NCBI GenBank assembly: GCA_003649205.1
Contig: QMRC01000003.1
Span: forward strand, 128,001 to 192,000
DNA: 64,000 nt
Direction of reading: 5' to 3'
From: Thermoprotei archaeon
GTDB lineage: Archaea; Thermoproteota; Thermoprotei; Thermoproteales; B15-G16
Part shown: positions 16,951-47,342 of the stretch, piece by piece
Position numbering within the stretch: position 1 is the first letter of the stretch
How the letters are laid out: each line of letters starts with the position of its first letter
The notes under the pieces: generated by a model
Databases searched by the model: none
The model's input: only the letters and a program-made list of their open reading frames with translations
Told to the model about the DNA's origin: nothing
Translations under genes and position numbers: made by a program

Positions 16951-16974
16951 GGGTACAGGACCAAGGAACAGTAC

Positions 16975-18454: not shown

Positions 18455-18478
18455 GTACTGTTCCTTGGTCCTGTACCC

Positions 18479-21743: not shown

Positions 21744-21746
21744 TTA

Positions 21747-23303: not shown

Positions 23304-23355
23304 ATCGACAACAAGGAGAATTCACTTATTAACGTTAACCAACTCAGGTGTAAAC

Positions 23356-24957: not shown

Positions 24958-25086
24958 TCGTTATCTCTTGACTTACACAATTCTATGTATAACACCGCTA
25001 TGCAATACTACTCAAGCTATATTCCTAGTTTGTTAATTTCATGATATATTGTGGGAATTGTATTGCTTCTGAAGCTAGGTATAACG

Positions 25087-26241: not shown

Positions 26242-26281
26242 GTACCCACCTCGAGTAGAGTACGTACTTGATGAAGATAAA

Positions 26282-26938
26282 TCAGTACCCACTTAAGAGC
26301 CTTTTCACCAGCTCTGGAATGTCGGTAACGATACCGTCAACACCTAGCTTCACCGCATTGATGATCTGACCCTCATCATTTAGAGTCCACACAACGACCT
26401 TTATACCGTGTGTATGTAGTTGCTCAACTAGTTCTCGATCTAGAAAGTCAATCCTTATAGATACACCATCCGCCTGAGCACACTTAGCTACGTAGTATGG
26501 GTCGACAGGTCTCTCACTGAGACTAATAAATGTCCGTGACTTAGGTAGTAGCTCCTTGATTACTCTTAGCGAGTAGTGGTAAGCTGATGAGAAGTAGAGT
26601 CTCTCATCTGAGATACCCAACTCCATAACTAACTTACACACTGAATCCTCTATCCTTGGTACCTTGAGGTCTAGCCAGATACCGATAGGGTACTTCAACA
26701 CTTCACTTAGTAAGTCCCTCAGCTTAGGTGCTCTAGATCGCTTTACGCTGTACCTAATTGACTCTATGAACCTCTTAACTCTAGATACTGGAACTACTGG
26801 ATCTGGTGGGTGGTACGCAATTAACTCTCCACCGTACGAATATACATCAATCTCAATGACATTAGCACCCTGTGAGATACACTTTGCTACCCTACCGAGT
26901 GAGTTACACGCATGAGCTATCACTAGTGGTTTCAACAT
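26282..26938 (-). CDS. GDPD family protein (mirror copy)
   Basis: Identical to 8491..9147. Confidence 0.85.
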   Translation of the reverse strand: MLKPLVIAHACNSLGRVAKCISQGANVIEIDVYSYGGELIAYHPPDPVVPVSRVKRFIESIRYSVKRSRAPKLRDLLSEVLKYPIGIWLDLKVPRIEDSVCKLVMELGISDERLYFSSAYHYSLRVIKELLPKSRTFISLSERPVDPYYVAKCAQADGVSIRIDFLDRELVEQLHTHGIKVVVWTLNDEGQIINAVKLGVDGIVTDIPELVKRLLSGY

Positions 26939-26940
26939 AC

Positions 26941-28047
26941 TTATACAACTAGTTTGCCTGTTTTCCTATCGAATATGTGTACCCTGTTGAAGTCAAGTAC
27001 GACCCATACTTCTTGACCTGCTGCAATTTCTGAGGCTGTTGATGCGGATTCAATGACCTTAATTATGTGATCACCAATCCTGACGTTGACTATGACCTCC
27101 CTACCAAGTGGTTCTGTAACGTACACTACACCCTTGATAGCTGATGTAGCTGGTCCCTTACTTATCTTGAGGTCTTCTGGTCTAACACCGAACACTACCT
27201 CGCTACTACTAGCTCTAGACCTAACGACTTCACCTAGCTCTCTAGGTAGCTCTATCTCAAATGACGTGAAGTCAAGTACATACCTACCATCTCTCTCCAC
27301 CAGTGAGCAATCGAGTAAGTTCATTGGTGGTGCACCTATGAATCCAGCAACGAACACATTCGCTGGTCTATTGTAGATCTCATCAGGTGGGCCATACTGC
27401 TGTAGCTTACCCTCATTCATGACTGCAATCCTGTCAGCTAAGGTCATAGCTTCTGCTTGGTCGTGCGTTACGTAGACAGTAGTTATCTTGAGCTCCTTCT
27501 GAAGTCTCTTCAACTCAGCTCTCATAAGTATCCTCAACTTAGCATCTAGGTTGCTAAGTGGCTCGTCTAGGAGGAAGACATCAGGTTGCTTCACAAGTGC
27601 TCTTGCTAGTGCTACTCTCTGCTGCTGACCACCAGAGAGCTGTGCTGGGTACCTATCCAGTAGGTGATCTATCTGAAGCATCTTAGCAACTTCCCTAACC
27701 CTCCTAGCGATCTCCTGCTTAGGTAACTTCTTTAACTTCAGTGGAAACGCTATGTTGTCAAACACGGTCATGTGTGGGTACAGTGCATAGCTCTGAAAGA
27801 CCATACCTATGTTCCGGTCCTTAGGAGGCCAGTCTGTTACATCAATCTCATCGAAGTATATCCTACCCTTAGTCGGTTTGTAGATGCCAGCTATACAGAA
27901 GAGAGTTGTTGTCTTACCACAACCAGAGGGACCTAGCAATACAACGAATTCACCATCCTTAATCTCTAGGTTTAAACCATCTACAGCCTTAACACTACCG
28001 AAGTACTTACAGAGATCAACTAACCTCACACTAACCACATACCTCAC
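26941..28047 (-). CDS. Sugar ABC ATPase (mirror copy)
   Basis: Identical to 7382..8488. Confidence 0.95.
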   Translation of the reverse strand: MRYVVSVRLVDLCKYFGSVKAVDGLNLEIKDGEFVVLLGPSGCGKTTTLFCIAGIYKPTKGRIYFDEIDVTDWPPKDRNIGMVFQSYALYPHMTVFDNIAFPLKLKKLPKQEIARRVREVAKMLQIDHLLDRYPAQLSGGQQQRVALARALVKQPDVFLLDEPLSNLDAKLRILMRAELKRLQKELKITTVYVTHDQAEAMTLADRIAVMNEGKLQQYGPPDEIYNRPANVFVAGFIGAPPMNLLDCSLVERDGRYVLDFTSFEIELPRELGEVVRSRASSSEVVFGVRPEDLKISKGPATSAIKGVVYVTEPLGREVIVNVRIGDHIIKVIESASTASEIAAGQEVWVVLDFNRVHIFDRKTGKLVV

Positions 28048-28055
28048 CTCCTAGA

Positions 28056-28940
28056 TTAAGCACCCTTAACACCACCAACCTGAACCTGCATGAGATACTT
28101 CTGAGTTAAGACGAAGAAGACTAAGGGTGGTATACAGTAGAATAGTGCTGTTGCTGCTAGTAGTGAGTAGTCTACGTACCTAAACTCACCAATTAGGTTG
28201 AGTACGTGAACTGATAGTGGGAAGAGGTTGGGATCGAAGAGGAATGTGTATGCGAATATGAACTCATTCCAGCCTGCTAGAAATGCAAAGATCGATACAG
28301 CAGCTATACCTGGCTTGACCAGAGGTAGAATTACCTTCCTCCAGGCCTGTAACCTACTACATCCATCTACGAGAGCTGATGCCTCGACATCCCATGGTAT
28401 TGCGTCAAAGAATCCCTTAATCAACCAAGCCGCCATAGGTATTTCGAATGCTGCCTTAGCAATTATGACGCCAAATAGCGTATTGATCAGACCCATTAGG
28501 TGGAGTAGGTAGAATGTAGCTATGAGAAGTGTGATACCAGGGAAGGCGTGTAGTGCTATTATGAGGAGTAGCATCTTGTCTCTAAGTGGGAACTCTATTC
28601 TTGAGAGAGCATAACCAGCTAGTAGAGCAATCGATACCTCAAAGACCGTAACACCACCTGCTATGATTAGTGAGTTCAGTGCTATAGGCCATATCATCGG
28701 TATAGTGACTTCACCAAACTTGATCTCCTGCCATAAGAATCTCCAGCCCCTGATCGAGAAGTTTGTCGGTATGAAACCAACTAGTACCCTATCACTGATT
28801 GACTGCATGAAGAGCCATAGGTACATCATTATGAGTGGTATCGTAGCAGCAGTCATAACACCATATATCACAGCCTTCATCAATGCTCTCTTAATTCTAT
28901 ACGAGTACGGATTCACTACCGATCTCCTACCCCTATACAT
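28056..28940 (-). CDS. ABC permease, MalG type (mirror copy)
   Basis: Identical to 6489..7373. Confidence 0.92.
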   Translation of the reverse strand: MYRGRRSVVNPYSYRIKRALMKAVIYGVMTAATIPLIMMYLWLFMQSISDRVLVGFIPTNFSIRGWRFLWQEIKFGEVTIPMIWPIALNSLIIAGGVTVFEVSIALLAGYALSRIEFPLRDKMLLLIIALHAFPGITLLIATFYLLHLMGLINTLFGVIIAKAAFEIPMAAWLIKGFFDAIPWDVEASALVDGCSRLQAWRKVILPLVKPGIAAVSIFAFLAGWNEFIFAYTFLFDPNLFPLSVHVLNLIGEFRYVDYSLLAATALFYCIPPLVFFVLTQKYLMQVQVGGVKGA

Positions 28941-28951
28941 GGCATCACCCC

Positions 28952-29941
28952 CTAAGCAATCTCAATCTTTGCAGGCGATATCATCCTCCTGAACTTGAAC
29001 ACCTTCATGTAAGCGACAACACATATAATCGAAACAATGACCAGCACCATAGCTAGTGCAGCGCCAAAACCTAGCTCAAGATGTTCAAATGCTTGGTGGT
29101 ATGCAAATAGCGACCAAACCTCTGTAGCATAGAATGGGCCACCATTGGTCACTATCAGGATGTACTCGTAAGATGCTAGGAGACTTAGCGTCTGCCACGC
29201 TGTAACAAACATGAGTGGCCACTTCAGCAGTGGTAGGATTATGTCCTTAATTATTCTCCACTCAGAAGCACCATCAACACGAGCAGCGATTATGTAGTCT
29301 CTAGGTATTGACTTGAGAGCTGATGAGAACACAATCATACCGAATGAACAACCAACGAAGCCGTTGATGAGTATTATGAAGAGCATGGGGTACTCCATCA
29401 ACCAGTTAATTGGCTTATCGCTGAGACCAAGAGCGAGAACAAATTGATTGAGTAAACCATACTCAGTTGGGTCAAGTACCCATAACCACAGTAGACCATA
29501 GACAACTGGTGGTGAGGATCGCGGTAGTAGCCAGAGAGCCCTATAGAAGAGAGCACTCCTCTCATCCATGTAGTAAGTGAGTAGAGCAAGGAGAAGACCA
29601 ACGAAGACATTCCACAGCAACGTACAGGAAACGTAGATTGCAGTATTCACAACAACCTTCATCGTAAATGGATGCTTACCTATGTTGAAGTAATTCTCAA
29701 GACCAACCCAATGCCACTCAGCTCTCCTAATACTCATGTCCGTAAACGAGAGAAAGACAGTTAGGAATACAGGACCAAACCAAAAGAGAGCAATCATGAC
29801 AATACATGGGCCTAGGAAGATGGTAAGTAGTAGGAACTTCCTAGCTCTAGGGCTCAGTTTACTCCTTGAACGATGTAGCCTTCTAGAGGACATCAGGGGT
29901 AATTGTGCAGGTAGGGTAAAAAAGAATTTCCTTTTAGACAT
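28952..29941 (-). CDS. ABC permease, MalF type (mirror copy)
   Basis: Identical to 5488..6477. Confidence 0.9.
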   Translation of the reverse strand: MSKRKFFFTLPAQLPLMSSRRLHRSRSKLSPRARKFLLLTIFLGPCIVMIALFWFGPVFLTVFLSFTDMSIRRAEWHWVGLENYFNIGKHPFTMKVVVNTAIYVSCTLLWNVFVGLLLALLTYYMDERSALFYRALWLLPRSSPPVVYGLLWLWVLDPTEYGLLNQFVLALGLSDKPINWLMEYPMLFIILINGFVGCSFGMIVFSSALKSIPRDYIIAARVDGASEWRIIKDIILPLLKWPLMFVTAWQTLSLLASYEYILIVTNGGPFYATEVWSLFAYHQAFEHLELGFGAALAMVLVIVSIICVVAYMKVFKFRRMISPAKIEIA

Positions 29942-30099
29942 ATTGATGTATAAAGCGAGTTACTTATACCTATTCATTAATCCCTACTACTTTAGCTAGT
30001 TAAGAAACTGGTGAAAGTGTACGATCAGTGAATGATCTGGTCTCAGTATTGATCTCCTAAAATTACTTTTCTCTCCTAAGTACTACGGGTGATTCTCTC

Positions 30100-30429
30100 A
30101 TGACAGAAGTACGAGTAGCTAGGCTAAGCAATATAATCGAGGTAATCGACGAGGTATTTAATGGCGATACCTACGACTACTTACTCACTGCAATCCTGAA
30201 TAGGGACATAGATGGTGTTAAGACGGTAGTGGAGAAGGTAGCTCAAATAGTTTCCACAAGAACGGGTGTAGACCTAGGTACTGTACGTGTTCACGTGTAC
30301 GACTACGTTGTAGGTATTGTTGAGAGTATTATAGAGGATTTTGTTCTTCTGAAAAGAAAGCTTGAGGAACTTAGAGATTTAGATGCTAAGGGAGGTAGAG
30401 GGGGAGAAAATAGGGAGTTTACTCCGTGA
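30100..30429 (+). CDS. Hypothetical protein (mirror copy)
   Basis: Identical to 5000..5329. Confidence 0.6.
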   Translation: MTEVRVARLSNIIEVIDEVFNGDTYDYLLTAILNRDIDGVKTVVEKVAQIVSTRTGVDLGTVRVHVYDYVVGIVESIIEDFVLLKRKLEELRDLDAKGGRGGENREFTP

Positions 30430-31936
30430 TCACGACTTCTTTAGCTAGCTCTGGATCTGCCTTTATTGAGTCTATCATGAACTTTAGTGCCTCATCTGGC
30501 TTCATCTTACCCATCTCAACAGCTGCAATAGCGTCAAAGATTATCTTCTTGTACTTGCTCCATAGTGGGTGCATTGGCTCGAATGTCGTGTAGTCTAGCA
30601 TGTATGCTACATCGCTTAGGAACTTAGCTTTCTTCATCTCTGGGTGCTCTAGGCTTGCCTTTCTAACGGGTATGTGTGCACTGCCAACAGCGTGCTTTAC
30701 ATCGAATTCTGGTTGCGTTACTAGTGCTAGTATTAGTGCAGCTACTTCTGGGTGCTTGCTCTGGCTAGTTATGACGTAGACGAATGGGTGTGATAGTGTT
30801 ACTGGTTTTCCACCCTTGTATCCACTTGGTACTAGCATGAATATGAAGTTCTCCCACAGGTATGACTCAGGTACCTTACCTAGCTTGGGGTGGTATGGTA
30901 CTTTTTGCCACTCAGCCCAGTGCCATGTACCACCGAACCAGAATAATGTCTGTCCTGAGACAACTGCTGTGTGTATGGATCTCCAGGACCACGTTGTCAT
31001 GTCTGACGGTATCACCTTGTAGACCTGTGCACCCTTATAGAACCACTCCAAGGCCTTCAGCATTGCGCCCTTCTTCAGCACCATCTTACCTGTTGCTGGA
31101 TCCCATAACTTACCACCGTAAGCTAGGTAGATCTGCCACAGCTCTCCACCAGGTGTTGGTCTATGTAGTATACCGTACTTAACCAATCCCTTCTCAACTG
31201 CTTTCTTAGCTAGCTCTAGCATGTCGTCTAGTGTGAATTCTCCGCTCTTCACCTTCTCTGGTAGTGCAGCTATCTCCTCGTCTGTCCACCCAAGTGCTTT
31301 AAGTGCTGGCTTCCAAACGTAGACTGGTCTAGCTTCTGTATCCTGTGGTATTGCCCATATGTGTCCCTTGTAGGTTACAGCTTCCCACAGTGGTTTTGGT
31401 ATGTCGTAGAATGCGAGGTCCCAGTACTTCTCCACATACTCATCCAGTGGTATTATAATTCCCTTCTCCGCTAGCATTGGTATCCACTCGTGACCTACAG
31501 CAATTATGTCTGGTAGCTTACCCGCCTCATAAGCTAAGTAAATCTTCTTCTCGTACTCAGCCCATGGACCTCTGTGGTAGTACTTCTCAACAACCTTAAC
31601 TTCAGCTGTAATACCGAGTGTCTTCAGTAACTCTGTCAGTAGCTTTGCAGCAGCCTCTGGATTATTAACTCTAGTTACTGATGCTGGGTCACCAGCACCC
31701 CAAACCCTTAACTCAATGGTGACACCTTTCTTCAGTTCCTCTAGCTCACTCTTCAGTTTCTCGTACTCCTTCTTCAATTTCTCATACTCTTCAGGTGGAA
31801 TACCAGTGGGAGGTGGCGGTGTGGGTGGAGCTGGTGGTGCTGGTCTTGGTATGGCGTAGTAGCCAATTGCTATACCAATTACTAAGCCAACTATGAGAAG
31901 TACTATCGCTAAGGTTAATGCTCTCTTCTCAGCCAT
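30419..31936 (-). CDS. ABC substrate-binding protein (mirror copy)
   Basis: Identical to 3493..5010. Confidence 0.9.
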   Translation of the reverse strand: MAEKRALTLAIVLLIVGLVIGIAIGYYAIPRPAPPAPPTPPPPTGIPPEEYEKLKKEYEKLKSELEELKKGVTIELRVWGAGDPASVTRVNNPEAAAKLLTELLKTLGITAEVKVVEKYYHRGPWAEYEKKIYLAYEAGKLPDIIAVGHEWIPMLAEKGIIIPLDEYVEKYWDLAFYDIPKPLWEAVTYKGHIWAIPQDTEARPVYVWKPALKALGWTDEEIAALPEKVKSGEFTLDDMLELAKKAVEKGLVKYGILHRPTPGGELWQIYLAYGGKLWDPATGKMVLKKGAMLKALEWFYKGAQVYKVIPSDMTTWSWRSIHTAVVSGQTLFWFGGTWHWAEWQKVPYHPKLGKVPESYLWENFIFMLVPSGYKGGKPVTLSHPFVYVITSQSKHPEVAALILALVTQPEFDVKHAVGSAHIPVRKASLEHPEMKKAKFLSDVAYMLDYTTFEPMHPLWSKYKKIIFDAIAAVEMGKMKPDEALKFMIDSIKADPELAKEVVITE

Positions 31937-32100
31937 ATTAATGACCCTCGTGCTATAAGACACAATAGCCCTATTTAAAACTTTTCTATCCCGAATATAC
32001 GATATAGGGAAGATAAGAGGCTTAGTACCTTATATATTCACATTAATTTGCTAACTCATGAACATATATCCTTTGTATGTCTATGTAGGTTACTAGAGTT

Positions 32101-33378
32101 TTGGCGGGGGACTTCGCTTATATATCTGTATTGTGGTTGCTTTTGGGGGTTGCCTTGTCCTTAAGGTGGAGTGTTGTTGCTCTGTGTTTTGCGCTTGCTC
32201 TAATTGGTACTTCTGGTTTTAGGTTGCTAATTCCTGCTATCTCATACCTGTGTAGGTACGTCTTCGGTGTCTCTGCTCTTGCGCTTGCTCTCTTGACTGT
32301 TCTCTTTTTCGTTGCTAGGTCTATCTCCTCTGTCCTGGTTGGTAAATTATGTGAGGTTTATGGTAGGTTGAATGTAGTTGTGTTCATTGCTTTCTCTCTA
32401 TTTGCTTTAGTTTCCCTGCTATTTGCCTTTGCTGGCTCCATACATCTCGTCCTTGTTCTTAGGTTTGTGCAGGGTCTCCTAAGTGGTTTTGCTTGGGTTA
32501 CTGTTCAGCTCCTTCTTGGGCTTTCTGTTCCTAAGGAGTTTAGGGGTAGGGTTTTCGCTATCTACTTTATGCTTGGTTCTCTTGGTTTTTCCTTAGGAAA
32601 TTACCTGTACTCTGTGCTCTCTAGCTTTTCCCTATTATGGATTTGTTTTGTTGCTTTCTGCATGTACTGTGTTTGTGCTATCTTATCTCTACTCCTACCT
32701 TCGAGAGCTACGATTACTGGTATTCCCAGTGCTAACGTTCTTCGCGGTCTCTCATCTGTATTACGTGTTTTGAGGTTTGGTTTTCCTCTCTTTACTTTGC
32801 TCTTTGTTGTTCGTCTCTACTTCTCTATTGTTGGTGGTGAGCTGGGTTATGTGTACTTATGTGAGTTCACAGGTTTATCTATGGGGGTTGTTGCTAGGTT
32901 TCTAGCTATTGTTTCATTGATTTCCCTTGCTGTTAGCTATGGTATTGCTTGGTTGGGTGATAGATTTTCTGACTTACTTGCTCTATACCTATGTTCTCTA
33001 CTCCTAGTTGCTGGTTCCCTACTTCTTGCTGTCTCTAATGTGTCTCTTGTATTCCTTGGTTTCCTTCTCTTGTCGAGTAGTTTGAGGTCTCTAACACCTT
33101 TGTCTAGGAAATTTGCTACTACGTACTTTAGGTCTAGAGGTGTTGCTATTGGTCTCGTTAATTCTGTTACTAATTTAGGTGCTGCTCTTGGTGCTGTTTC
33201 TGCTGGTTATCTCTACGATGTTCTTGGTCTTGTGACTATATCTATTAGATTTCTTAGTACTTCTACTGATCTCTGTATTTTTACTCTTGTGTTAGCTCTC
33301 TTTGTATCTACTTTAGTTCTCTTCTCATGTCTCCTACTTCACATGTGGAGGTTTAGGTTAAAGAGCTCCAAATATTAG
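32101..33378 (+). CDS. MFS transporter (mirror copy)
   Basis: Identical to 2051..3328. Confidence 0.8.
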   Translation: MAGDFAYISVLWLLLGVALSLRWSVVALCFALALIGTSGFRLLIPAISYLCRYVFGVSALALALLTVLFFVARSISSVLVGKLCEVYGRLNVVVFIAFSLFALVSLLFAFAGSIHLVLVLRFVQGLLSGFAWVTVQLLLGLSVPKEFRGRVFAIYFMLGSLGFSLGNYLYSVLSSFSLLWICFVAFCMYCVCAILSLLLPSRATITGIPSANVLRGLSSVLRVLRFGFPLFTLLFVVRLYFSIVGGELGYVYLCEFTGLSMGVVARFLAIVSLISLAVSYGIAWLGDRFSDLLALYLCSLLLVAGSLLLAVSNVSLVFLGFLLLSSSLRSLTPLSRKFATTYFRSRGVAIGLVNSVTNLGAALGAVSAGYLYDVLGLVTISIRFLSTSTDLCIFTLVLALFVSTLVLFSCLLLHMWRFRLKSSKY

Positions 33379-34761
33379 GATTAATGCTGCTATTAATAGT
33401 GGTGATGTAGCTATGAGTAGGTACATAAGTAGCCTCACTACCAGGGCTCTGGGTACCTTGCTAGCTACTGCATAGAGTAGCTTGTTCAGTATTGCTGCTA
33501 GTGTTGTCAGCATGACGCTTATGCTTACGACCTTCTCACTTGCTAGACCTACCTGCAGTAGTGATAGTGCTGAGAATATCATTGCTTCAGAGCTAACTAA
33601 TCCACCTAGGATCGATAGTGTTAGTAGTCCTTTATCGCTGAAGTACATTGTTGCTAGAGTCGTCATGACGAGAATTGCTGCGAATAGTAGGCAGTACTTG
33701 ATTGCTGCTCTATAGTTTATTGGTGAGGTTAGTGATGGTACCTCTTCACCACGGATATTCATATTGGTGCTTACCTGTGGTTTGCTCTGAATTAGTTTGA
33801 GTTTAATTGGTATGTAGAGTGCGAGTGCTGTTGCTAGTAGTGCTAACATAGTTAGTACTGTGTACCTACTAATCTCTGCTGTTATAGCCATCGTGTATCT
33901 GAGGAATGTGAATATGAGTAGATTTCGTATCACCATAGCTAGATTAGCTGAGAGGATACCACCTAGCACTAGGTTGCTAACTGCATTCCTGAAACCTAAT
34001 TTCTGACCTAGTACAATTAGGTTTATTGTAGTTGCTTCACTGTGTACTAGACCTCCAAAGAATGCGAAGTAGGTCAATGCTCTCATACCACACATCTTCA
34101 CAACCATGTAGCCTATGTAGGAGATGATGAGGATTATCACGAAGAATATGTAGAGTGTCTTGAAATTGACTACGTGGAGTAGTGGATCGTAGATGTCTCT
34201 AGCTAGGAAGGGACCAAGTAGGAAGACTATGATACCTATCTCAAGAGCTGATAGGAGTTCCCTATACGTGACACCTCTAATCGCTTTAACTATATGGAGC
34301 TTAACTGCTAGCATGAATGTGATTAGTACAGAGAGAGCAACAGCTTCAAGTACGTAACCTAAACCAACAAGAACCCCAAGGACATAGGCTAGTCCTAAAG
34401 CTAGTGGAGTTGTTATTCCACTCTCCTTGAGAATGAGCATTCTATGGATTATAAAGAACAGGATTGTGAAGATGGGTGGTAGTATTAGTGGGATTAGTAC
34501 GTACTGAGCTATGTCGCTAGGCATGTAGTAGGGCGCTATTATTGTCAAGGCACCGAGTAAGCTCACGAAACCAAAGCTTCTAACACCTGGAAACTCCTTG
34601 ACATCCTCCGTATTGCCACTCTCGGCAGCTTCCTGCTTAGCCTTCTCTCTCTCAAGCCCTATGAGTGCACCAACAGCAAATGCAATGAGTGACTTCATGA
34701 GAAGTGTCCACTCAACACTCGTATTCAATCCGTGAATAACCATATCTAGCACCTGAAGCAA
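33358..34761 (-). CDS. MgtC/SapB-DUF4010 membrane protein (mirror copy)
   Basis: Identical to 668..2071. Confidence 0.85.
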   Translation of the reverse strand: MLQVLDMVIHGLNTSVEWTLLMKSLIAFAVGALIGLEREKAKQEAAESGNTEDVKEFPGVRSFGFVSLLGALTIIAPYYMPSDIAQYVLIPLILPPIFTILFFIIHRMLILKESGITTPLALGLAYVLGVLVGLGYVLEAVALSVLITFMLAVKLHIVKAIRGVTYRELLSALEIGIIVFLLGPFLARDIYDPLLHVVNFKTLYIFFVIILIISYIGYMVVKMCGMRALTYFAFFGGLVHSEATTINLIVLGQKLGFRNAVSNLVLGGILSANLAMVIRNLLIFTFLRYTMAITAEISRYTVLTMLALLATALALYIPIKLKLIQSKPQVSTNMNIRGEEVPSLTSPINYRAAIKYCLLFAAILVMTTLATMYFSDKGLLTLSILGGLVSSEAMIFSALSLLQVGLASEKVVSISVMLTTLAAILNKLLYAVASKVPRALVVRLLMYLLIATSPLLIAALILIFGAL

Positions 34762-34980
34762 AGACCATATCCTGACCTACTTAAATTCATTACTGTTATA
34801 ACAGTGACTTTAGTCCTTTATACACATTTTTATTTCTCTACCAATAGATTTATCGCTATAGTATAAGTGTTACACCACGTAAGTTATGTCTAGGTATAGC
34901 TAGTGTTTTTATCAGCGGTGCTAATGTTGTGTGGTTAAGGAGTAGACTTCTTATCCTTTACTCATGATCCTACCTATGAG

Positions 34981-35517
34981 GTGTTTATTGTGTCTTCGAG
35001 TGTTGTACCTGTGTATGCTCAGGGTTTCTTCATTATGTCGAGACTTGGCCGTGTAACTCAAATTGTTGTCTTTGATTACTATGATCCTGAGAAGTACTAC
35101 CTATCGCTACTGAGGAGAGGTTCTCTTGAGGAGGAACTGTCGAGAATTGAGGAAAATATGCAGTACTTTCTCGATGAGGAGAGGGTCTACATAAATGGTG
35201 TTCGGACCTACCCTAAGGTCATCTCTACCACTCTTAGTTTCCGTGGTGATGTGACTAGACCTTACATTACCTTCATTATTGAGTTTAGTGGTCCTATTAG
35301 GGCTGGTTTGAATAAGTACGAGGATTACTATGAGGAGGAGGTTGTTGAGTATGATTATGAGTTTACATGGTTTTTCCCTGAGGGTTGGAGAGTTAGAGGT
35401 GCTGAGCTTGCTGTTCCTTATGAGATTATTGAGGATAGGGTACTTGTTGCTAGGGTTAAGAAGGGTACTAAGGTCGGTCCTTACGAAGCCATCTTATTTG
35501 AGGTAGGGGAGAAGTAA
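34981..35517 (+). CDS. Hypothetical protein (178 aa, acidic, beta-rich)
   Basis: Uninterrupted ORF with host-like codon usage; no recognised motif. Confidence 0.75.
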   Translation: MFIVSSSVVPVYAQGFFIMSRLGRVTQIVVFDYYDPEKYYLSLLRRGSLEEELSRIEENMQYFLDEERVYINGVRTYPKVISTTLSFRGDVTRPYITFIIEFSGPIRAGLNKYEDYYEEEVVEYDYEFTWFFPEGWRVRGAELAVPYEIIEDRVLVARVKKGTKVGPYEAILFEVGEK

Positions 35518-40322: not shown

Positions 40323-40426
40323 GCGTATTTTACGTGATTAATTTTTATAGTTTCCTTTGATGTTATAACCTAGTGCATCTCAGTAAAACACCTAGGTTAC
40401 GCAATGGATATGTACTGTGGTTGAGT

Positions 40427-41782
40427 ATGGTGAGGTATGTTCTCCCTATTGTCTTGATTCTGTTTCTCTTCCTTATTCCAAGTCATCACTGTTTATGTGC
40501 TTCTGCTGAGGTCATGGTAGTTAGAGGTTTTGTATATGTTGAAGGTGGTAAGCCTCCGGTCAGAGCTGATATCCCGGTGTATGCGGTTTATGGTGGTAAG
40601 GTTATTGCTGAGAACTTAACCTCAATGGATGGTTCCTTCGTCTTAATTGTAAGGGGTTTGAGTAATGGTACTGAGTTCTCTATACGTGTTGGTGAGTATG
40701 AGGTGCGTAAGTTAGTGTTCTCTCCTGGTGCTGTGATTAGTGTAGGCACTCTTAAAGTTAAGGATGCTTTGAGACCTAGTAGACCTAAAATAGTTGAAGT
40801 TCGTAGTGGTATTAGGTGGGTGTTTGTTAGGTGGAGTCACTCTAGTGATGATGTAGCTGTTTCCAAGTACGTTGTCTCGATTAGGTTAGTTAATGTGGAG
40901 AAGTACGTATCCTCCATCGAGGTCTCTAGTAAGAAGACCTCCGTTAACTTAAGTGAAGTACCTCCAGGTATTTACCTCGTTGAGGTGCAGGCTATTGATG
41001 TTGCTAATAGAGCTAGTGACGTAGCTAGTGCTAGAGTAGTTGTGTATCCGGAGAAGGTTGTAGTGTGGGGTAAGGTAGTTGTTAGGGGTCCTAGGGGGCA
41101 AGCTATGTTACCTGGTCTTTCGGTTAGGGCTTACGTTGGTAATGAACTAGTCAATAGTACTGTGACGATGCAGGGTGGTTGGTACTCACTAACTTTACCT
41201 GGTGAGAAGGTATTTGGTAAGGTGATAAAGCTTGTGTGTAGAGATTCTGAAACCGTAATCACGATCAATAGGACTAAGGTGAAGGTAGACCTAGTAGCTA
41301 GAGACTACACAGCACCTACCCCCCCTGCAAACTTAATAGCAACGTATATCGGTGACGCAGTTATCGTTAAGTGGTCTCCATCAGTAGATGACGTGGCATT
41401 GGGTGGTTACTATGTTGAGTTTCGATCTAAGTTAGTATTTACCAATGCTACGTCTGTAGTGATTAAGTGCGGTAAGTTGATACCAGGTAAATATGTGGTT
41501 CGTGTATGGGCTATGGATGCTGTTGGTAATAACAGTACAGCGGCTGTAACGCATGTGTATGTTGAGTTTCCTCATGAGAAGTTACTTACGGTGGTTAGTA
41601 TCCTAATTGTTGCGATAACTGTGGTGTCAGTGCTCGCTATAGTGCTTAGATATGTAGCTACTAAGAGAGCAGAGCGGTACGTTGACCTGTATTATAGAGC
41701 TACGTTATTGGTAGGTCGCTACTCTTCACTCTGCATACGGGCACTATCCTTGACTTCAAATCCTCTAATCTACACTCTCTAA
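40427..41782 (+). CDS. Cell-surface protein: signal peptide, two tandem beta-sandwich+FN3-like modules, C-terminal TM anchor
   Basis: Repeated D...P..P / W..S.DDVA...Y.V / V.A.D..(G)N.S FN3 signatures; ATG 40427 precedes a hydrophobic leader. Confidence 0.75.
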   Translation: MVRYVLPIVLILFLFLIPSHHCLCASAEVMVVRGFVYVEGGKPPVRADIPVYAVYGGKVIAENLTSMDGSFVLIVRGLSNGTEFSIRVGEYEVRKLVFSPGAVISVGTLKVKDALRPSRPKIVEVRSGIRWVFVRWSHSSDDVAVSKYVVSIRLVNVEKYVSSIEVSSKKTSVNLSEVPPGIYLVEVQAIDVANRASDVASARVVVYPEKVVVWGKVVVRGPRGQAMLPGLSVRAYVGNELVNSTVTMQGGWYSLTLPGEKVFGKVIKLVCRDSETVITINRTKVKVDLVARDYTAPTPPANLIATYIGDAVIVKWSPSVDDVALGGYYVEFRSKLVFTNATSVVIKCGKLIPGKYVVRVWAMDAVGNNSTAAVTHVYVEFPHEKLLTVVSILIVAITVVSVLAIVLRYVATKRAERYVDLYYRATLLVGRYSSLCIRALSLTSNPLIYTL

Positions 41783-42167
41783 TACCACTACCGCTGTAAC
41801 AGTAGATATTGCTCAGTGGTACTGGTCTATGTCTCAAGTCTGCGATAGGTCTGAGGTATAGTATGTAGTACTTCTCACTGTAGCTTGTTATTGGGTATAT
41901 CTTCTTAAGCTCTTTAACTAGCTCTACTCTGCTTCTGAAGCCAGCTGCTTTAGCCTCATCATCACTTATACTCCTAAGCTCTTTGATGATGACTTTAGTG
42001 ACCTCAACAATGCCAACAATGCCGGATCCAGTAGCTAGAAGTAGTTTATCACCAGATCTGACGAGATCTATGTTTACAGTACCTTCCCACCTAACTTCAG
42101 CTATCTTCCTACCATCGAGAATTGCATCAGCATACTTCCTCCTTACTGCAATTACCCAAATCGCCAT
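41700..42167 (-). CDS. ASCH domain protein
   Basis: YADAILDGRKIAEVR (GxKxxExR), GDKLLL, EA..AGF....L...L..IYP. Confidence 0.85.
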   Translation of the reverse strand: MAIWVIAVRRKYADAILDGRKIAEVRWEGTVNIDLVRSGDKLLLATGSGIVGIVEVTKVIIKELRSISDDEAKAAGFRSRVELVKELKKIYPITSYSEKYYILYLRPIADLRHRPVPLSNIYCYSGSGIRECRLEDLKSRIVPVCRVKSSDLPIT

Positions 42168-42174
42168 GTTCTTC

Positions 42175-44325
42175 CTAGCTAAGTAGCTTCCTAACAGCTT
42201 TATCTACAGTAGCTTTAGCGGTCTCTATATCGGTTCTGAGAGCAGCAGCCACATCGTCCAAAGGTTTACCCTGCAGTACATAAGCAATCAACGCAACTAA
42301 TTCGCTGAAGCTTAGATCTACTGAAGGGGATTCACATAACTTCCTCAATGTTGCTAAGTAAATAGCATCCATAGCTGATTCAAGTAGAATCCTCCTACTT
42401 AAGTACATCTCGAGTCTCTTCTCTTGATTTCTCGTTAACTCAATTCTCACTGACACAGGTACCCTAATACTCTTCAATACACTAGCAACAACCTCAGCAC
42501 TTAAATCCCTGTAGACACTCATTAAGCAGGTAAGTAATCTAACCTTAAATTCCCTCAATGCTTCTTCAACGTAATGTCGCATCCTAGTACTCAGTGGCTT
42601 TATCACAGCTATGTTCTTCTCACCTGTCACCTTATTGAATCGTGGAGATACATAGATTGGTAAGTACCCGTTCTTTAACCAAAAGTCAATGATGTCATTT
42701 CTAGAGAATATAGCACCGATCCAGTCAAGGTTTATACTACGTGCTTCCTCCTCGAGGAAGTTTAGTAGTTTTGAACCGTAGCCTCTTCTCTGTAGATTAG
42801 GTACTACAGCAATCCTAACAATTCTCCAGCCTCTTGTCTTAGCAGCTTCCTTAGGACCGTACCTCAGTAACTTATCTAAGACCAGTACTCCTCTTAGACC
42901 ACGTGTAATAGCTCTCTCAACATCACGAATAGGTCCTTCCTCAGCTATCTGCGCAACAGCTACAACTCCTCTATCGGAGTTGAGTATACGAATGTGGTGA
43001 TGAGGGGCGTCAAGCATGGTCATTAAGTCATCAGGTTCATTCCTGTAGTGCGCTAGAGCGAGTAAGCCATAGACTTTCCGTAGTAAATCCCTATCCTTAA
43101 CTAGCTGTTCTTGATCTACAGAAGAGTACTCCACATTCTCTGGTTTCGGTATCTCTATTGGGTCTACTCGGAGAAAGAATACTTGGTAAAGCCACTCTTC
43201 AAGTGGATCATTTGATAGGTACCTAATAGGTACCTTGAACTCGTAGACTAGTGGACTAGGTAGCTGCTTAATTAGCAGTTCAGAAGCTACCCTTCCAGAA
43301 CCTTCGTAACCGTGGACTGTAGTCACCATCATGACCTTCCTACTCTTAGCACACAACCTCCTAACACGAGCAGCACCAACAGCAGCAGCCTCATCAATCA
43401 CCGTTAATCTAGCACCAGTAGCTAACCAAGGGACAACATACCTAACTTCAAAACCCCTACCCCTAATACCCACTACACTTCCCTTCTCAGTAATTGTCTT
43501 ATAATCAATACCTAGCTTCTCTAGCCCTAGACAGAGGAACTTCATGAATGTCGTGATACTGCGTGGTGAAGGTGCTGTTACCAAAATCTCATCAGTGTAG
43601 TTATGTGCTATAGCCAGCGCAGTTGCTAGACCGAGAGCAGCGCTCTTCCCTCTACCACGATCACCTTTACCAACTAAAACCTTAAGTGTTAAGTCACTAA
43701 GCAGTCTTAAGCTATGCAAAACGAACTCGTACTGATCCTCAGTAGCACATAGCGAAAGTACCTTTCTCAACCTCTCATCAACATTCGTGATCTCGGGTGT
43801 GAACTGTCTTCGAGATAACTTACTCGGTAGATTACGCAATACCACCTCACCGCTATCAACATCAACTACAAGGATTGATCTACACAACTTAAGCGACTCA
43901 AGTAAATACCTACGGAAGGTACCTCTACCACCCTCGACACCTGGACTCCACAAACTAAGTGACTTAGTTAACCAGATACTGAATCCACCGCACCTAATCA
44001 TCTCTGATGCAGCAGAAACAGCATTAGGTCTGAAGAAGTACCTAAAATCCATAATGACAGAGCTATACTCCCTACCTAGGTAACTAGTCAGCTCATGAAA
44101 TCTAGCTACCTCAATATCATGCACAGCAAGTACCTTACGTAGGTCCCTACTATCAGTAAATGCGAGTATAGGTCTAGCTAGGTGCCCAAGTAGTGTGCTT
44201 AATACGTGTATTACTTGTTCTGTATCACCACTGAGGACTATCAGACCTCTAGCATTACAGCTCCTAACATAGTCGATGAATTGCTTAATCTCATCAGCAA
44301 TACTACCTGTAGTTCTCATAGACAT
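42175..44325 (-). CDS. tmcA: RNA cytidine acetyltransferase (TmcA/Nat10 family)
   Basis: GDRGRGKSAALG, IDEAAA, TTVHGYEGSGR, PIRY..NDPLE, AHYRNEPDDL, RIAVVP.LQRRGYGS, FWLKNGY. Confidence 0.95.
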   Translation of the reverse strand: MSMRTTGSIADEIKQFIDYVRSCNARGLIVLSGDTEQVIHVLSTLLGHLARPILAFTDSRDLRKVLAVHDIEVARFHELTSYLGREYSSVIMDFRYFFRPNAVSAASEMIRCGGFSIWLTKSLSLWSPGVEGGRGTFRRYLLESLKLCRSILVVDVDSGEVVLRNLPSKLSRRQFTPEITNVDERLRKVLSLCATEDQYEFVLHSLRLLSDLTLKVLVGKGDRGRGKSAALGLATALAIAHNYTDEILVTAPSPRSITTFMKFLCLGLEKLGIDYKTITEKGSVVGIRGRGFEVRYVVPWLATGARLTVIDEAAAVGAARVRRLCAKSRKVMMVTTVHGYEGSGRVASELLIKQLPSPLVYEFKVPIRYLSNDPLEEWLYQVFFLRVDPIEIPKPENVEYSSVDQEQLVKDRDLLRKVYGLLALAHYRNEPDDLMTMLDAPHHHIRILNSDRGVVAVAQIAEEGPIRDVERAITRGLRGVLVLDKLLRYGPKEAAKTRGWRIVRIAVVPNLQRRGYGSKLLNFLEEEARSINLDWIGAIFSRNDIIDFWLKNGYLPIYVSPRFNKVTGEKNIAVIKPLSTRMRHYVEEALREFKVRLLTCLMSVYRDLSAEVVASVLKSIRVPVSVRIELTRNQEKRLEMYLSRRILLESAMDAIYLATLRKLCESPSVDLSFSELVALIAYVLQGKPLDDVAAALRTDIETAKATVDKAVRKLLS

Positions 44326-45577
44326 GGCAACTACATGCAATGAATGTTATCGTACCTAGATCAACGTCAAGACCACTTCTCTTAAGTTCTTCCGTAATGT
44401 ACTTCATTACCTCTCTAACGGCAAATACATTGTGTACGAAGGCACTCCTAAAGTCGTGGCTCCTCATGTACACCGTAGCATGTAGCTTACCATCCCTAAT
44501 CATGAATTGCCACAGTATGAAACAAGGTGGGTTCTCTGTCTTGACCAAGTCCTCGTAAGGACTCCAGAACACAGCAACAGCTTGTCTAGTACTCGGTTCA
44601 CTACGTAACTTATCGACGATAGCTCGCAATTGATCACCGAACTTAACCCTCAACCTCTCACCATAGCTATACTCATAACCCTCAATACTCCTACCCTCGA
44701 GAATAGCTCTACAGTACTCCTCAAGATACTTCTTAGCACCAAGTGGGTACTCTCTAGGTACTTCATCACAGAGAGGATCAAGTACGTGTATCACGACATT
44801 CATTAACTCCTTCGTAATTCCAAACCTAGACTCAACACATCTACCAAATCTCTCAATTAGTCGAATCACTTCCCTATAGGCATCAGCTACTGACCTCGCA
44901 ACAACGACTGTAAGGTTCTGTGATAGAGTCTCCACATACCCCCCGCTCACCTTACTCGTTACCTTGACTATATATGGCTCTAAGTCATATGCACCAGGAT
45001 CGAATAACCTATACTTAATACCCTTCACCTCAATCTCAACAGCATTCCAAGGTTCCTGAATACAGCCTCTAATCACCTTTCTCAGCATCTCCCTATCCGT
45101 CACACCTAGCATATCAATGACAATTACCTGATCACGAAATCTCTCAATAGCTTCAAGCGGCAGATTTGGTATGTAGGCCGTTGGTGCATCGCAATTCAGC
45201 ACTCTCCTACTCTCTGGATCCACACCATACCTCCACAACTTAATCATAGCTTCACCACTACGATGACCGCTTGTATCGTGACCAACAACTACTAGGTACC
45301 TAATGTTTGGATTAGCTAGCACATTACATACTACCTTCTCAATCCCTATGTTAGCTGTCTTACAGAAACCAGCTATTGCTACACCAAGCTCAATAGCTGT
45401 CTTCACCAATTCATTACCTACCTCATCATCCAGTGGTACCATTACAGCAACGGGATGGAACTTATTACCAAGTACGTAATTCCCATCCTCAACAGTCCAC
45501 CTATCCGGAACATTACACTTACTACACTCCTTACCTCTCCACGAAACCTTAACATGCTGAATAACACTGTAGCTCAT
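44303..45577 (-). CDS. thyA: Fusion: MtrA-like corrinoid-binding domain + archaeal-type thymidylate synthase domain
   Basis: N-half W.VE.GNY.LG, CKTANIGIEKVV.N...NPNIRYL, GHRSG, IERF..QV, DPGAY; C-half YSYGERL, DQL, TRQA, PPC, RSHD......HN, HVY. Confidence 0.88.
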   Translation of the reverse strand: MSYSVIQHVKVSWRGKECSKCNVPDRWTVEDGNYVLGNKFHPVAVMVPLDDEVGNELVKTAIELGVAIAGFCKTANIGIEKVVCNVLANPNIRYLVVVGHDTSGHRSGEAMIKLWRYGVDPESRRVLNCDAPTAYIPNLPLEAIERFRDQVIVIDMLGVTDREMLRKVIRGCIQEPWNAVEIEVKGIKYRLFDPGAYDLEPYIVKVTSKVSGGYVETLSQNLTVVVARSVADAYREVIRLIERFGRCVESRFGITKELMNVVIHVLDPLCDEVPREYPLGAKKYLEEYCRAILEGRSIEGYEYSYGERLRVKFGDQLRAIVDKLRSEPSTRQAVAVFWSPYEDLVKTENPPCFILWQFMIRDGKLHATVYMRSHDFRSAFVHNVFAVREVMKYITEELKRSGLDVDLGTITFIACSCHVYENYR

Positions 45578-45680
45578 GGGTACTCACACTTGAGATAGTA
45601 CCAGAACCATAATTAACTTACGACGACATAGATCGTGAGGTATATGTAGATGCTTCGAAGTGTAGAGAATGTAGCTAAGG

Positions 45681-45688
45681 TTTAAAGA
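45681..45688 (+). promoter_or_regulatory. TATA box for the sRNA at 45711
   Basis: TTTAAAGA preceded by CTAAGG, about 25 nt before the C box. Confidence 0.55.
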
Positions 45689-45710
45689 GACATAGTATTC
45701 TGATCACGTT

Positions 45711-45764
45711 GGATGATGCTCTCGGGGCTCACTGAAAAGTGATGACTAGCTCCATCGATGACAC
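45711..45764 (+). ncRNA. C/D-box sRNA candidate
   Basis: GATGATG (C) ctctcggggctca CTGA (D') aaa GTGATGA (C') ctagctccatcg ATGA (D); own TATA box. Confidence 0.75.
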
Positions 45765-45839
45765 ACACTCTACTTCTCTCTAGGTAATAAGCGGATAAAG
45801 GAGGAGAAAAAGACCGGGTTTGTGAGTACTTACAAGTAC

Positions 45840-47342
45840 TCACTTGTTCTCTCTCTTGTTCATTACCTTACCACACCATTCAGGATGTGTCAATCCTCGT
45901 TCTTCCGGTGTTCCTGGTATCAGGTTATCTAGCACGATGCCGACTATAGCTGCAACGGCCATACCTGTCTCGAGTATAATCTCAACTATTTCACCTAACC
46001 ACATTAGTTGTGGAGGTAGCAGTGCGACGATTGCTCCTCTACCTTTAACACCGTATGGGTTGTAACCTTTCATCCACATAGGTACGCTTAGACCGAGGTA
46101 CAGTGACATGCCTACGATCAGTAGGTTTCTAGGTGATTTCAAGTCTATTAGCGTAAGCAGCGAAGCTCCTACAGCAGCTATCATACCGAATACTACGAGA
46201 TATAGACCTCCAATAATTGGCTTAGGAATTGTCGCCATGAGTGCTCCGAACTTACCGAAGAACCCCATTAGCAGCATGAATACCGCACCTAGCTGAATGA
46301 CGTATCTACTAGCTACCCTAACTAACCCAATGACACCTATGTTCTCTGAATAACTCGTGTACCCTCCAGCACAACCGAAGATACCACCAATTAGGCAGCC
46401 AAGGCCTTCAGCACCGAGACCCTTGGATATTGTCTTTTCGTCTGGTGGTGGTGCCTCACTCACCCTACATACTGTGTGGTAGTCACCTATAGACTCAACC
46501 ATCGATGCTACGTAAGCAGCTAACATACCGAGGATGAACGCTGGTACGAACTTAGGTAAACCCCATGGAAATGGCTTCGGTATGTTTAACCAAGGTAATT
46601 CCATGAGTGGCCTTAAATTCACGTACCCTGGATCACCAGGTTTTAGGAAGCCAGTTATCGAGAGTAGTAGTGCAACTACGTAGCTGATCATGACACCGAG
46701 TACTACTGGGAACAGCATGAATATCCTGTACCTCCTGCCAAGTACTTGACTAAACAGCACAATGAGTACCACTGTAAGTAGTGCAAGACCCCAGTTACCA
46801 CTTGCCTGTGAAGCTCCTACATCAGCTAGTGAGAGCCCAATAACTATTATCGTTGGCCCGATAGATACAGGTGTTATGTACCTTCTCAATAGACCAGCTA
46901 ATCCACTGTACCCAATCACGATCTCAAAGAATGAAGCACCTATGATAGCTCCTGTTGTGTAGAGTAGTATTTCGCTACCTCTAATCCCCATGCTCTTACA
47001 GGTAGCTATGATAGCTACTAGAGGTCCTAGAAAGGAGAATGAGGATCCTTGTACGATAGGTAACCCACTACCTACCTTTTTCCACGTTTGCAGTAGTGTA
47101 GTAATACCTGCACAGAAGAATTGAATACATACTAGCTTTGCTGTATCCTCTGGCGTTAGCTCCATTAGTGATGCTAGGAGTAGCGGAACTGCGACTGTAG
47201 CTCCAAACATTGTGAGGTAGTGTTGGAATCCTAGGAACAGTGCTGTAAGGAGTGGTGGTTTCTCTTCGATTCCATAGATTATGAATCTCTTTGTTTTAGT
47301 GTCTCTACTCTCTCTGCTAATTTCTTCAGGTAGCTTACTCAG
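45840..47342 (-). CDS. NCS2 (uracil/xanthine) nucleobase permease
   Basis: LPIVQGSSFSF, ESIGDY, TSYSENIG, P.PIIGG, RNLLI; the TM1 motif YGIEEKPP...GFQHYL lies upstream of ATG 47210, so the start is extended to CTG 47342. Confidence 0.9.
   Translation of the reverse strand: MSKLPEEISRESRDTKTKRFIIYGIEEKPPLLTALFLGFQHYLTMFGATVAVPLLLASLMELTPEDTAKLVCIQFFCAGITTLLQTWKKVGSGLPIVQGSSFSFLGPLVAIIATCKSMGIRGSEILLYTTGAIIGASFFEIVIGYSGLAGLLRRYITPVSIGPTIIVIGLSLADVGASQASGNWGLALLTVVLIVLFSQVLGRRYRIFMLFPVVLGVMISYVVALLLSITGFLKPGDPGYVNLRPLMELPWLNIPKPFPWGLPKFVPAFILGMLAAYVASMVESIGDYHTVCRVSEAPPPDEKTISKGLGAEGLGCLIGGIFGCAGGYTSYSENIGVIGLVRVASRYVIQLGAVFMLLMGFFGKFGALMATIPKPIIGGLYLVVFGMIAAVGASLLTLIDLKSPRNLLIVGMSLYLGLSVPMWMKGYNPYGVKGRGAIVALLPPQLMWLGEIVEIILETGMAVAAIVGIVLDNLIPGTPEERGLTHPEWCGKVMNKRENK

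Follow-up and report, generated by a model that had tools for sequence, protein, structure and literature searches.

A divergent TmcA-family gene directly upstream of an ASCH-domain gene in a Thermoprotei archaeon: probably an independently assembled writer-deacetylase pair of a known type

N4-acetylcytidine (ac4C), the product of the RNA cytidine acetyltransferase TmcA/Nat10, occurs abundantly in RNA from heat-loving archaea; its removal and recycling are only now being worked out. Genes for ASCH-domain proteins of the YqfB clade and of the TRIP4-like type are reported to stand in operons with TmcA/Nat10-like genes, and a subset of the TRIP4-like proteins, which carry Glu24, to be fused to NAT10/Kre33-like acetyltransferases or encoded in operons with them (bioRxiv 10.64898/2026.08.01.741249). 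A second preprint reports that all of the ASCH proteins tested (19/19), of both the GKTR and the GKER octapeptide class, remove ac4C from tRNA in vitro, and that mutations at Tyr14, Lys23, Glu26 and Arg28 of TthASCH abolish activity; YqfB is described there as binding no nucleic acid, and ZmASCH, termed a single-stranded RNA (ssRNA) nuclease, as inactive on free ac4C and without effect on ac4C levels in vivo (bioRxiv 10.64898/2026.02.27.708502). Term searches of the accessible text returned no mention of gene neighbourhoods in the second preprint, and none of TmcA or operons in the YqfB papers PMC6972931 and PMC9599836. Here we examine a row of three genes on the minus strand of a 64,000-nucleotide stretch of a Thermoprotei archaeon genome (assembly GCA_003649205.1, contig QMRC01000003.1, positions 128,001 to 192,000; the whole stretch is called the window), in which a gene for an MtrA-ThyA fusion is followed by a TmcA-family gene, tmcA2, and by an ASCH gene.

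The last two genes of this row are probably an independently assembled writer-deacetylase pair of a known type. The idea of a writer beside an eraser is already in print, in a 2026 preprint (bioRxiv 10.64898/2026.08.01.741249); what is particular to this locus is its paralogous writer, the swapped carboxylate and extended fold of its ASCH, an apparently independent origin, and its place behind thyA. An earlier note on this DNA, made from the letters alone, had proposed the ASCH as an ac4C reader or eraser, an idea that gains from the ac4C activity reported for the GKER class, although it is no longer new. Gene order, domain content, conserved motifs, predicted fold and purifying selection, as described below, were each read directly from the data.

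Pairing of this kind recurs in the phylum. Our search for the helicase/ATPase family PF05127 covered 301 genomes of the phylum and found a match in 125. When a hidden Markov model built from the ASCH relatives was run over 62 TmcA loci, six loci, each from a different family, had an ASCH open reading frame (ORF) directly after a canonical tmcA; in the same 301 genomes, every one of the 12 top-ranking ASCH matches other than the query itself (E 6e-47 to 1e-38) lay directly downstream of the canonical tmcA of its genome. These 12 paired genomes represent seven families (our handles G085, G002, G172, G053, G117, G151, G193, G069, G260, G057, G158 and G186). The ASCH start overlaps the TmcA stop in 12/12 paired loci, and the TmcA-linked ASCHs are about 100-105 aa long and of the Thr24/Asp75 type; none of the other listed ASCH matches was adjacent to TmcA when coordinates were compared by eye. 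Because it recurs in 12 further genomes of the 301, the adjacency of tmcA and ASCH is more than chance, and what the earlier note had seen once, a writer gene directly beside an ASCH, is found elsewhere in the phylum as well.

Two further observations concern these loci. One TmcA-linked ASCH (L074:4020-4349, identical to L097, in G069) has its first ATG, GTG or TTG at codon 43, with the domain running from about codon 8, and probably uses a non-canonical start. In five genomes of family f25 (G265, G094, G022, G295 and G229), an ASCH bearing a helix-turn-helix (HTH) lies at a constant 12-13 kb from the canonical tmcA, a conserved synteny without adjacency.

Both partners of the window pair lie outside the clades that are paired elsewhere, tmcA2 in the TmcA tree and its neighbour in the ASCH tree. 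Because both come from lineages not paired elsewhere, the simplest reading of the two trees is that the window pair would be a separate juxtaposition in the ancestor of the genus, independent in origin of the canonical arrangement.

The ASCH domain of the third gene matches Pfam PF04266 with 49.9 bits against a cut-off of 21.2 (E 5.5e-13); a core of residues 1-105 (41853-42167) is followed by a beta-rich C-terminal extension of residues 106-155 (41703-41852), and the protein is basic (isoelectric point, pI, 9.5). The octapeptide G-x-K-x-x-[E/T/S]-x-R, whose GKTR and GKER classes we use as defined in the preprint (bioRxiv 10.64898/2026.02.27.708502), is present as G19, K21, E24 and R26, together with Y12. 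The marks of the YqfB (GKTR) type are absent, residue 24 being Glu rather than Thr or Ser and residue 75 being Ala rather than acidic. A profile of the ASCH relatives aligned with YqfB (9KYF) at E 6.3e-11 and set K21, E24, R26 and A75 opposite YqfB K21, T24, R26 and E74, in agreement with the manual alignment of the earlier note, in which Lys and Arg were kept and Glu and Ala stood in for Thr and Glu. The Glu that was remarked on there is confirmed, but it is no oddity, for it belongs to the common GKER octapeptide and goes together with the absence of the second carboxylate. In an alignment of 57 ASCH sequences, K21, R26, G76 and Y91 are invariant (57/57); Thr24 goes with Asp or Glu at position 75 in 52, and Glu or Asp at position 24 goes with Ala or Cys at position 75 in the remaining five, which make up the window's clade, a perfect covariation. 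The predicted catalytic carboxylate is relocated from position 75 to position 24, not lost. Y12, K21, E24 and R26 also align with Tyr14, Lys23, Glu26 and Arg28 of TthASCH, in a match that is not significant by itself (E 0.7).

An AlphaFold2 model of the ASCH protein is confident throughout, the 50-residue extension included, with a mean predicted local distance difference test score (pLDDT) of 95.7. The top Foldseek match to the model is E. coli YqfB 9KYF, with a template modelling (TM) score of 0.86 on target and a root-mean-square deviation (rmsd) of 1.7 A. The top VIA-align match is ZmASCH (Z 14.4, rmsd 2.5 A, 130 residues, model 1-153), with further matches to PH0355 (Z 12.7), to YqfB (Z 12.3 over residues 3-108) and to TthASCH (Z 9.6); a structural alignment to YqfB had been suggested in the earlier note, and both programs return one. 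The model is predicted to have the PUA-like beta-barrel fold in common with the solved ASCH proteins. Because the match to ZmASCH extends over the whole length and the model is confident, the extension is, as modelled, part of an extended ASCH fold and not a disordered tail. Ratios of nonsynonymous to synonymous substitution rates (dN/dS), computed between two species of the genus (the window versus its same-genus orthologues), reveal purifying selection on all three genes of the row (fusion 0.08, TmcA2 0.14, ASCH 0.10), and the extension, at 0.11, is under the same constraint as the ASCH core. With this fold, the invariant K21 and R26 and the relocated carboxylate, the window ASCH looks catalytic, an activity that is predicted here.

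This ASCH is rare by sequence. A word-indexed protein search with it returned the query as the only match; HMMER against 1.84 billion representatives gave 31 matches at E <= 1e-3, four of them close (33-48% identity); and a search with a three-sequence ASCH alignment reached two genome loci and two metagenome loci only. Beyond its own small clade, the sequences closest to it are those of archaeal Thr24 (GKTR) proteins, and many of these carry a C-terminal HTH. In an ASCH tree of 57 rows, which has few columns and many unresolved forks and includes no TRIP4-like sequences, the window's clade is separated with 95% support and the TmcA-linked ASCHs are grouped apart from it. Its clade membership is ambiguous, with the fold nearest ZmASCH and the sequence nearest the Thr24 proteins. 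The window genome contains four distinct ASCH genes.

The gene directly upstream encodes the Pfam domains TmcA_N, NAT10/TmcA helicase (E 1.2e-40) and GNAT_acetyltr_2, with the helicase/ATPase domain at about 43171-43665 (PF05127, 139.7 bits) and the GNAT domain at about 42571-43074 (PF13718, 92.1 bits). Against the NCBIfam TmcA equivalog NF041296, TmcA2 scores 327.9 bits and does not reach the cut-off of 700. The PF05127 search found two distinct TmcA genes in the window genome, a canonical one (contig C1, locus L043, 199.4 bits, an 811-aa frame) and that of the window (143.5 bits). In a TmcA-family tree of 62 proteins (two fragments dropped, quick search, midpoint root), the canonical copy clusters with the genome's own order; TmcA2 and its same-genus orthologue fall within a separate 16-row clade with 100% support in the Shimodaira-Hasegawa-like approximate likelihood ratio test (SH-aLRT), a clade that also takes in second and third TmcA copies of f20, f25 and f36, families that belong to another class. 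No second copy of the TmcA2 type was present in the other searched genomes of the window's order or class. Because the NF041296 score is below the cut-off and the clade is a separate one, we classify TmcA2 as a member of the TmcA/Nat10 family that is a divergent paralogue and not an orthologue of the canonical enzyme. The earlier note had named this gene as the ac4C writer: membership in the TmcA family and the motifs stand, whereas the gene is the divergent copy and its canonical counterpart lies on another contig.

Walker A, Walker B and the GNAT acetyl-CoA motif (Q-x-x-G-x-G-[ST]) are kept in 16/16 members of the TmcA2 clade, and with these motifs and the constraint given above TmcA2 looks catalytic. 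Its TmcA_N match covers positions 2-138 of the 178-position profile and reaches 42 bits, where the canonical copy reaches 162, and the N-terminal domain appears degenerate. The family tRNA_bind_2 (PF13725) gave no match in TmcA2, and the canonical copy is itself below the cut-off (21 versus 27). No ASCH is found within about 7.5 to 9 kb of the canonical tmcA of the window genome. Discussion of a further Nat10/TmcA paralogue in Crenarchaeota is not evident in paper listings.

Other TmcA-family genes of the phylum show features of their own. Genomes of family f25 have three TmcA-family genes each. In family f36 (L011 and L013), a gene of the TmcA2 clade is followed directly by a methyltransferase gene of the Trm5/TYW2 type and faces an RNA ligase gene of the Pab1020 type, a tRNA-processing context. 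At L014:8332-11406 (G022), the TmcA2-clade gene is a 1024-aa frame with an N-terminal addition of about 300 aa and a weak match to a sigma-70 region 4-like HTH at its C-terminus. Family f26 (L007, L022-L025 and L079-L084) has its own internal TmcA duplication, with the copies about 10-12 kb apart in two genomes and one copy regularly flanked by genes for a D-2-hydroxyacid dehydrogenase and a major facilitator superfamily (MFS) transporter.

The first gene of the row joins an MtrA domain (fusion residues 22-183, about 45029-45514; PF04208, 137.9 bits, E 3.6e-40) to a thymidylate synthase domain, both profiles being matched within one frame. The latter matches Pfam Thymidylat_synt (PF00303, residues 312-422, 52.3 bits) and, over residues 224-422, the methanogen-type ThyA family TIGR03283 of NCBIfam with 171.8 bits, just below the cut-off of 174.55; this methanogen-type ThyA domain lies at about 44312-44908. 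In the PDB, the MtrA part hits a solved MtrA, 5LAA, with E 1.4e-33, and the weaker hits to the ThyA domain include CMP 5-hydroxymethylases. A Cys-containing stretch, which we take to be the ThyA active site, and a Gly-His, presumably of the MtrA cobamide site, are present. Frames that join MtrA to ThyA are widespread across the phylum (G280, 419 aa; G283; others about 460-500 aa) and occur in 8/8 genomes of family f4; we found no literature on the fusion. A second paralogue, of 527 aa, lies on another contig of the window genome (G000:C8:66583-68166), its MtrA part 68% identical to that of the window. Its surroundings (C8:60000-76000) consist of small co-directional ORFs of unknown function, with a serine-recombinase-like ORF adjoining at C8:61100-61924, and it probably belongs to an integrated element, a virus or plasmid carrying its own ThyA-family enzyme. 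ThyX (PF02511) was not found in the window genome, which is 93.8% complete. Because there is no ThyX and the other ThyA sits in a probable integrated element, the window fusion is most simply predicted to be the cell's housekeeping thymidine monophosphate (dTMP) synthase, and probably is. The link to dTMP synthesis that the earlier note had drawn found no support, for mtrA-thyA stands beside tmcA in this genus only: the G280 orthologue (57% identical) has entirely different neighbours, none shared with the window, and no TmcA or ASCH beside it. The dTMP link is without comparative support, a tie through pyrimidine salvage (ac4C to cytidine to deoxyuridine monophosphate, dUMP, and dTMP) is possible, and the pair's place behind thyA is probably a matter of expression.

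The three genes are tightly packed (Table 1). The stop codon of the fusion gene (44303-44305) lies inside the tmcA frame, which opens with a TTG at 44340 and has ATGs at 44325 and 44319; one of these ATGs is more likely to be the tmcA2 start than the TTG. The tmcA stop codon (42175-42177) and the ASCH ATG at 42167 are separated by 7 nucleotides (nt). These coordinates match what the earlier note had read, namely three packed minus-strand genes with an overlap at the tmcA start and a 7-nt spacing before ASCH. The gap before the fusion gene is the only sizeable one in the row, and therefore likely holds the promoter, as far as reading by eye can place it; a TATA-like A+T-rich stretch, also found by eye, lies about 35 nt before the fusion ATG. 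The permease gene upstream, on the same strand, is likewise upstream in the same-genus genome, and its part in the transcription unit is uncertain.

Table 1. Positions of the three-gene row and its upstream neighbour within the window
Feature	Position	Strand	Details	Basis
MtrA-ThyA fusion gene	44303..45577	minus	424 aa	
tmcA2	42175..44340	minus	721 aa counted from TTG 44340	
ASCH gene	41700..42167	minus	155 aa	
Overlap of mtrA-thyA end and tmcA2 start	44303..44325	minus	23 nt; 17 nt if the start is ATG 44319	read from sequence
Spacer from tmcA2 stop to ASCH start	42168..42174	minus	7 nt	read from sequence
Intergenic gap upstream of the fusion gene	45578..45839	minus	262 nt	read by eye
Xanthine/uracil permease family gene	45840..47210	minus	Pfam PF00860, E 3.9e-85	

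The same gene order (permease, fusion, tmcA, ASCH) is found in an independently assembled second species of the genus, with protein identities of 93% for the fusion, 96% for tmcA and 90% for ASCH, and the overlap of mtrA-thyA and tmcA2 is laid out alike there. Both junctions are also bridged by contigs from other public runs, one variant being about 94% identical: the independent run X2 has a contig across 44006-44698, spanning the mtrA-thyA/tmcA2 junction, and the tmcA2/ASCH junction is bridged by X2 record 5 (41600-43937, 139 differences) and by X4 record 19 (42127-42524, identical). Because the second species' assembly has the same order and other runs bridge the junctions, the gene order of the row is sound despite a palindrome in the contig. 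That contig, C3 (291,428 bp), is its own reverse complement with 0 mismatches, a fold-back assembly artefact; within the window, 17715-35428 is the reverse complement of 1-17714, and the centre of the palindrome at 17714/17715 is outside the three-gene row. The fold-back counts each gene of the contig, operon included, twice genome-wide and may inflate the contamination estimate. At its other end the row meets a convergent ORF (40373..41782) for a membrane-anchored fibronectin-type-III protein, the end of which overlaps the ASCH 3' end by 83 nt (41700-41782); the ASCH residues within this overlap are still under purifying selection (dN/dS 0.13).

We consider it somewhat more probable than a coin toss that, under one promoter, TmcA2 acetylates an RNA substrate of its own and the GKER-class ASCH removes the acetyl group; co-transcription, substrates and deacetylase activity are the predicted elements of this scheme. 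The three translationally packed genes would form a genus-specific operon, with a single promoter in the 262-nt gap driving thyA, tmcA2 and ASCH. The first product would be a thymidylate synthase, a ThyA domain fused to an MtrA domain of the cobamide type. TmcA2 would most likely use ATP and acetyl-CoA for the N4-acetylation of cytidine, in an RNA substrate unlike that of the canonical enzyme, and the ASCH would most likely bind ac4C in its PUA-like pocket and hydrolyse off the acetyl group by means of Lys21 and Glu24. Its target may be RNA, or the free nucleoside or nucleotide from RNA turnover, and it would limit or recycle the product of TmcA2. A pyrimidine-salvage role would fit the neighbours (thyA and the nucleobase permease), with one genus as its basis. 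A broader version, in which the pair was assembled independently of the canonical operon, selection repeatedly puts a dedicated deacetylase behind each ac4C writer, and this one has been wired to dTMP synthesis and the permease as a salvage unit, we consider unlikely; if it were true, each ac4C writer would need its own remover or recycler.

Several results weigh against a working writer-deacetylase pair. We surveyed 20 loci of about 19 kb each around other second or divergent TmcA copies, of which 13 belong to the TmcA2 clade, one is a fragment dropped from the tree and six are from family f26, which forms its own clade. Relatives of the window ASCH or of the fusion were found by tblastn in 0/20 of these loci, and Pfam detected no ASCH, MtrA or ThyA among the 79 ORFs flanking those TmcA genes. 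Conversely, TmcA stood beside the nearest ASCH relatives in 0/5 loci (L039/L086, L040, L041, L087 and L088; the last two are short contigs, both of which nevertheless include the immediate upstream neighbour of ASCH, a gene other than tmcA). Those relatives (41-48% identity, one 30%) adjoin genes for a membrane-anchored winged-helix protein, an M42 peptidase and a radical-SAM-like protein, and the ASCH orthologue in G310 shares no neighbours with the window. The exact pairing and the three-gene order are confined to one genus, whose two species, with proteins 90-96% identical, do not count as independent evidence that selection acts on the order. The window genome has four ASCH and two TmcA genes, and the odds of a chance adjacency are, by a rough estimate, about 1 in 100 per genome, which is not negligible across many windows. 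In addition, the activity of the ASCH is predicted from relatives with only 16-25% identity; the nearest solved whole-length fold, ZmASCH, is the protein reported as a nuclease, inactive on free ac4C and without an in vivo effect; and a writer and an eraser on one transcript amount to a futile cycle unless their substrates differ. A prediction of a TmcA2-ASCH complex scored 0.00 against a mark of 0.32, which says nothing either way. The neighbourhood survey, suggested as a check in the earlier note, thus divides its proposal: the three-gene order is nearly unique to this genome, being found in one genus only, while the tmcA-ASCH pairing as a kind is not, with its 12 further genomes.

The confinement of the gene order to one genus is also what an adjacency without functional coupling would produce, the genes having been joined by a rearrangement in the ancestor of the genus so that they share only a promoter, with the ASCH in some other nucleic-acid role: it might bind RNA, cleave ssRNA as ZmASCH is described to do, or recognise a different modified base. 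Unrelated genes flank both the G280 fusion orthologue and the ASCH orthologues elsewhere, the window genome offers four distinct ASCH genes for such an accident, ZmASCH is the best whole-length structural match, and the ASCH, EVE and YTH relatives among the structure matches read various modified bases. Yet an ASCH after a TmcA gene arose at least twice in the phylum from different lineages, a repetition that chance would hardly explain; purifying selection keeps the catalytic Lys/Glu/Arg set; and even ZmASCH is reported to have removed ac4C from tRNA in vitro (bioRxiv 10.64898/2026.02.27.708502). We regard uncoupled adjacency as rather improbable.

The two remaining explanations change what the ASCH does, or what it acts on. 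As a non-catalytic reader or adaptor it would bind RNA or ac4C and help an N-terminally degenerate TmcA2 to find or hold its substrate, in parallel to Tan1/THUMPD1, the adaptor of eukaryotic Nat10. The weak TmcA_N match and the undetected tRNA_bind_2 domain of TmcA2 would suit this, as would the basic charge and the confidently modelled extension of the ASCH and a 7-nt spacing that favours equimolar synthesis; but a pure binder would need neither the full set of Y12, K21, E24 and R26 nor a relocated carboxylate, and members of the TmcA2 clade outside the genus have no adjacent ASCH, so that we find an adaptor role doubtful. More far-fetched still is a pyrimidine base-modification module in which the ThyA-family, NAT10-like and ASCH proteins act jointly on DNA or deoxynucleotides, for instance on N4-acetyl-deoxycytidine. 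Each of the three genes has to do with pyrimidines, the gene upstream encodes a nucleobase permease, and CMP 5-hydroxymethylases appear among the ThyA matches; against these points stand the housekeeping role most simply assigned to the fusion in a genome whose other ThyA is in a probable integrated element and which has no ThyX, the G280 orthologue that does without TmcA or ASCH, and the lack of restriction, glycosylase or other DNA-modification genes flanking the row.

On the preferred reading, that of a writer-deacetylase pair, one lineage would have equipped its second writer with its own ASCH, in an event independent of the known operon. We see the locus as a useful test case more than as a discovery. 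Its clean natural carboxylate swap, from Thr24/Asp75 to Glu24/Ala75, could help to explain how two ASCH classes carry out the same chemistry; it draws attention to a second, unstudied clade of TmcA-like writers in the phylum; and what a cobamide-type domain contributes to a thymidylate synthase is seemingly unexplored.

Set beside the known systems one by one, the two proteins combine close and distant likenesses. With the canonical TmcA/Nat10 enzyme of its own genome (G000:C1, L043), TmcA2 shares the helicase/ATPase and GNAT_acetyltr_2 domains and identical core motifs, and it differs in being about 31-33% identical, about 90 aa shorter and degenerate in its N-terminal domain, with no tRNA_bind_2 match. 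With TthASCH (TTHA0113, PDB 2DP9/1WK2), which is reported as an ac4C amidohydrolase and tRNA deacetylase of the GKER class, the window ASCH has in common the octapeptide G-x-K-x-x-E-x-R, the four aligned residues and a basic character, whereas the sequence match is at E 0.7 and the structural match is moderate (Z 9.6); a linkage of TthASCH to tmcA is not described in the accessible text of the preprint (bioRxiv 10.64898/2026.02.27.708502). With YqfB, the N4-acetylcytidine amidohydrolase of E. coli (PDB 9KYF/9KYH/1TE7), the core superposes at TM 0.86 and an rmsd of 1.7-1.8 A over 99-105 residues with 24-25% identity, K21 and R26 occupying the same positions; the window protein differs in its Glu for Thr24, its Ala for Glu74, its 50 extra residues and its basic character, where YqfB is a small nucleoside enzyme. 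ZmASCH of Zymomonas mobilis (PDB 5GUQ/5GUS/5Y6B), also of the GKER class, is the best whole-length fold, at an identity of only 16%.

Like the TRIP4-like, NAT10-linked ASCH proteins, the window ASCH has Glu two residues before the Arg, a NAT10-like partner and an extended fold (as in ZmASCH, EOLA1 and TRIP4), and unlike them it has its nearest outside relatives among archaeal GKTR proteins. Its arrangement is that of the tmcA-ASCH operons, with the ASCH gene on the same strand, directly downstream of a TmcA-family gene and overlapping it or nearly so, and with Lys21 and Arg26 kept. In the known operons of this kind a canonical TmcA is the writer, and its partner is a YqfB-type ASCH (Thr24 and Asp75) about 100-105 aa long, whereas the window pairs TmcA2 with a 155-aa ASCH of a separate clade that carries Glu24, Ala75 and a C-terminal extension, and places both behind thyA.

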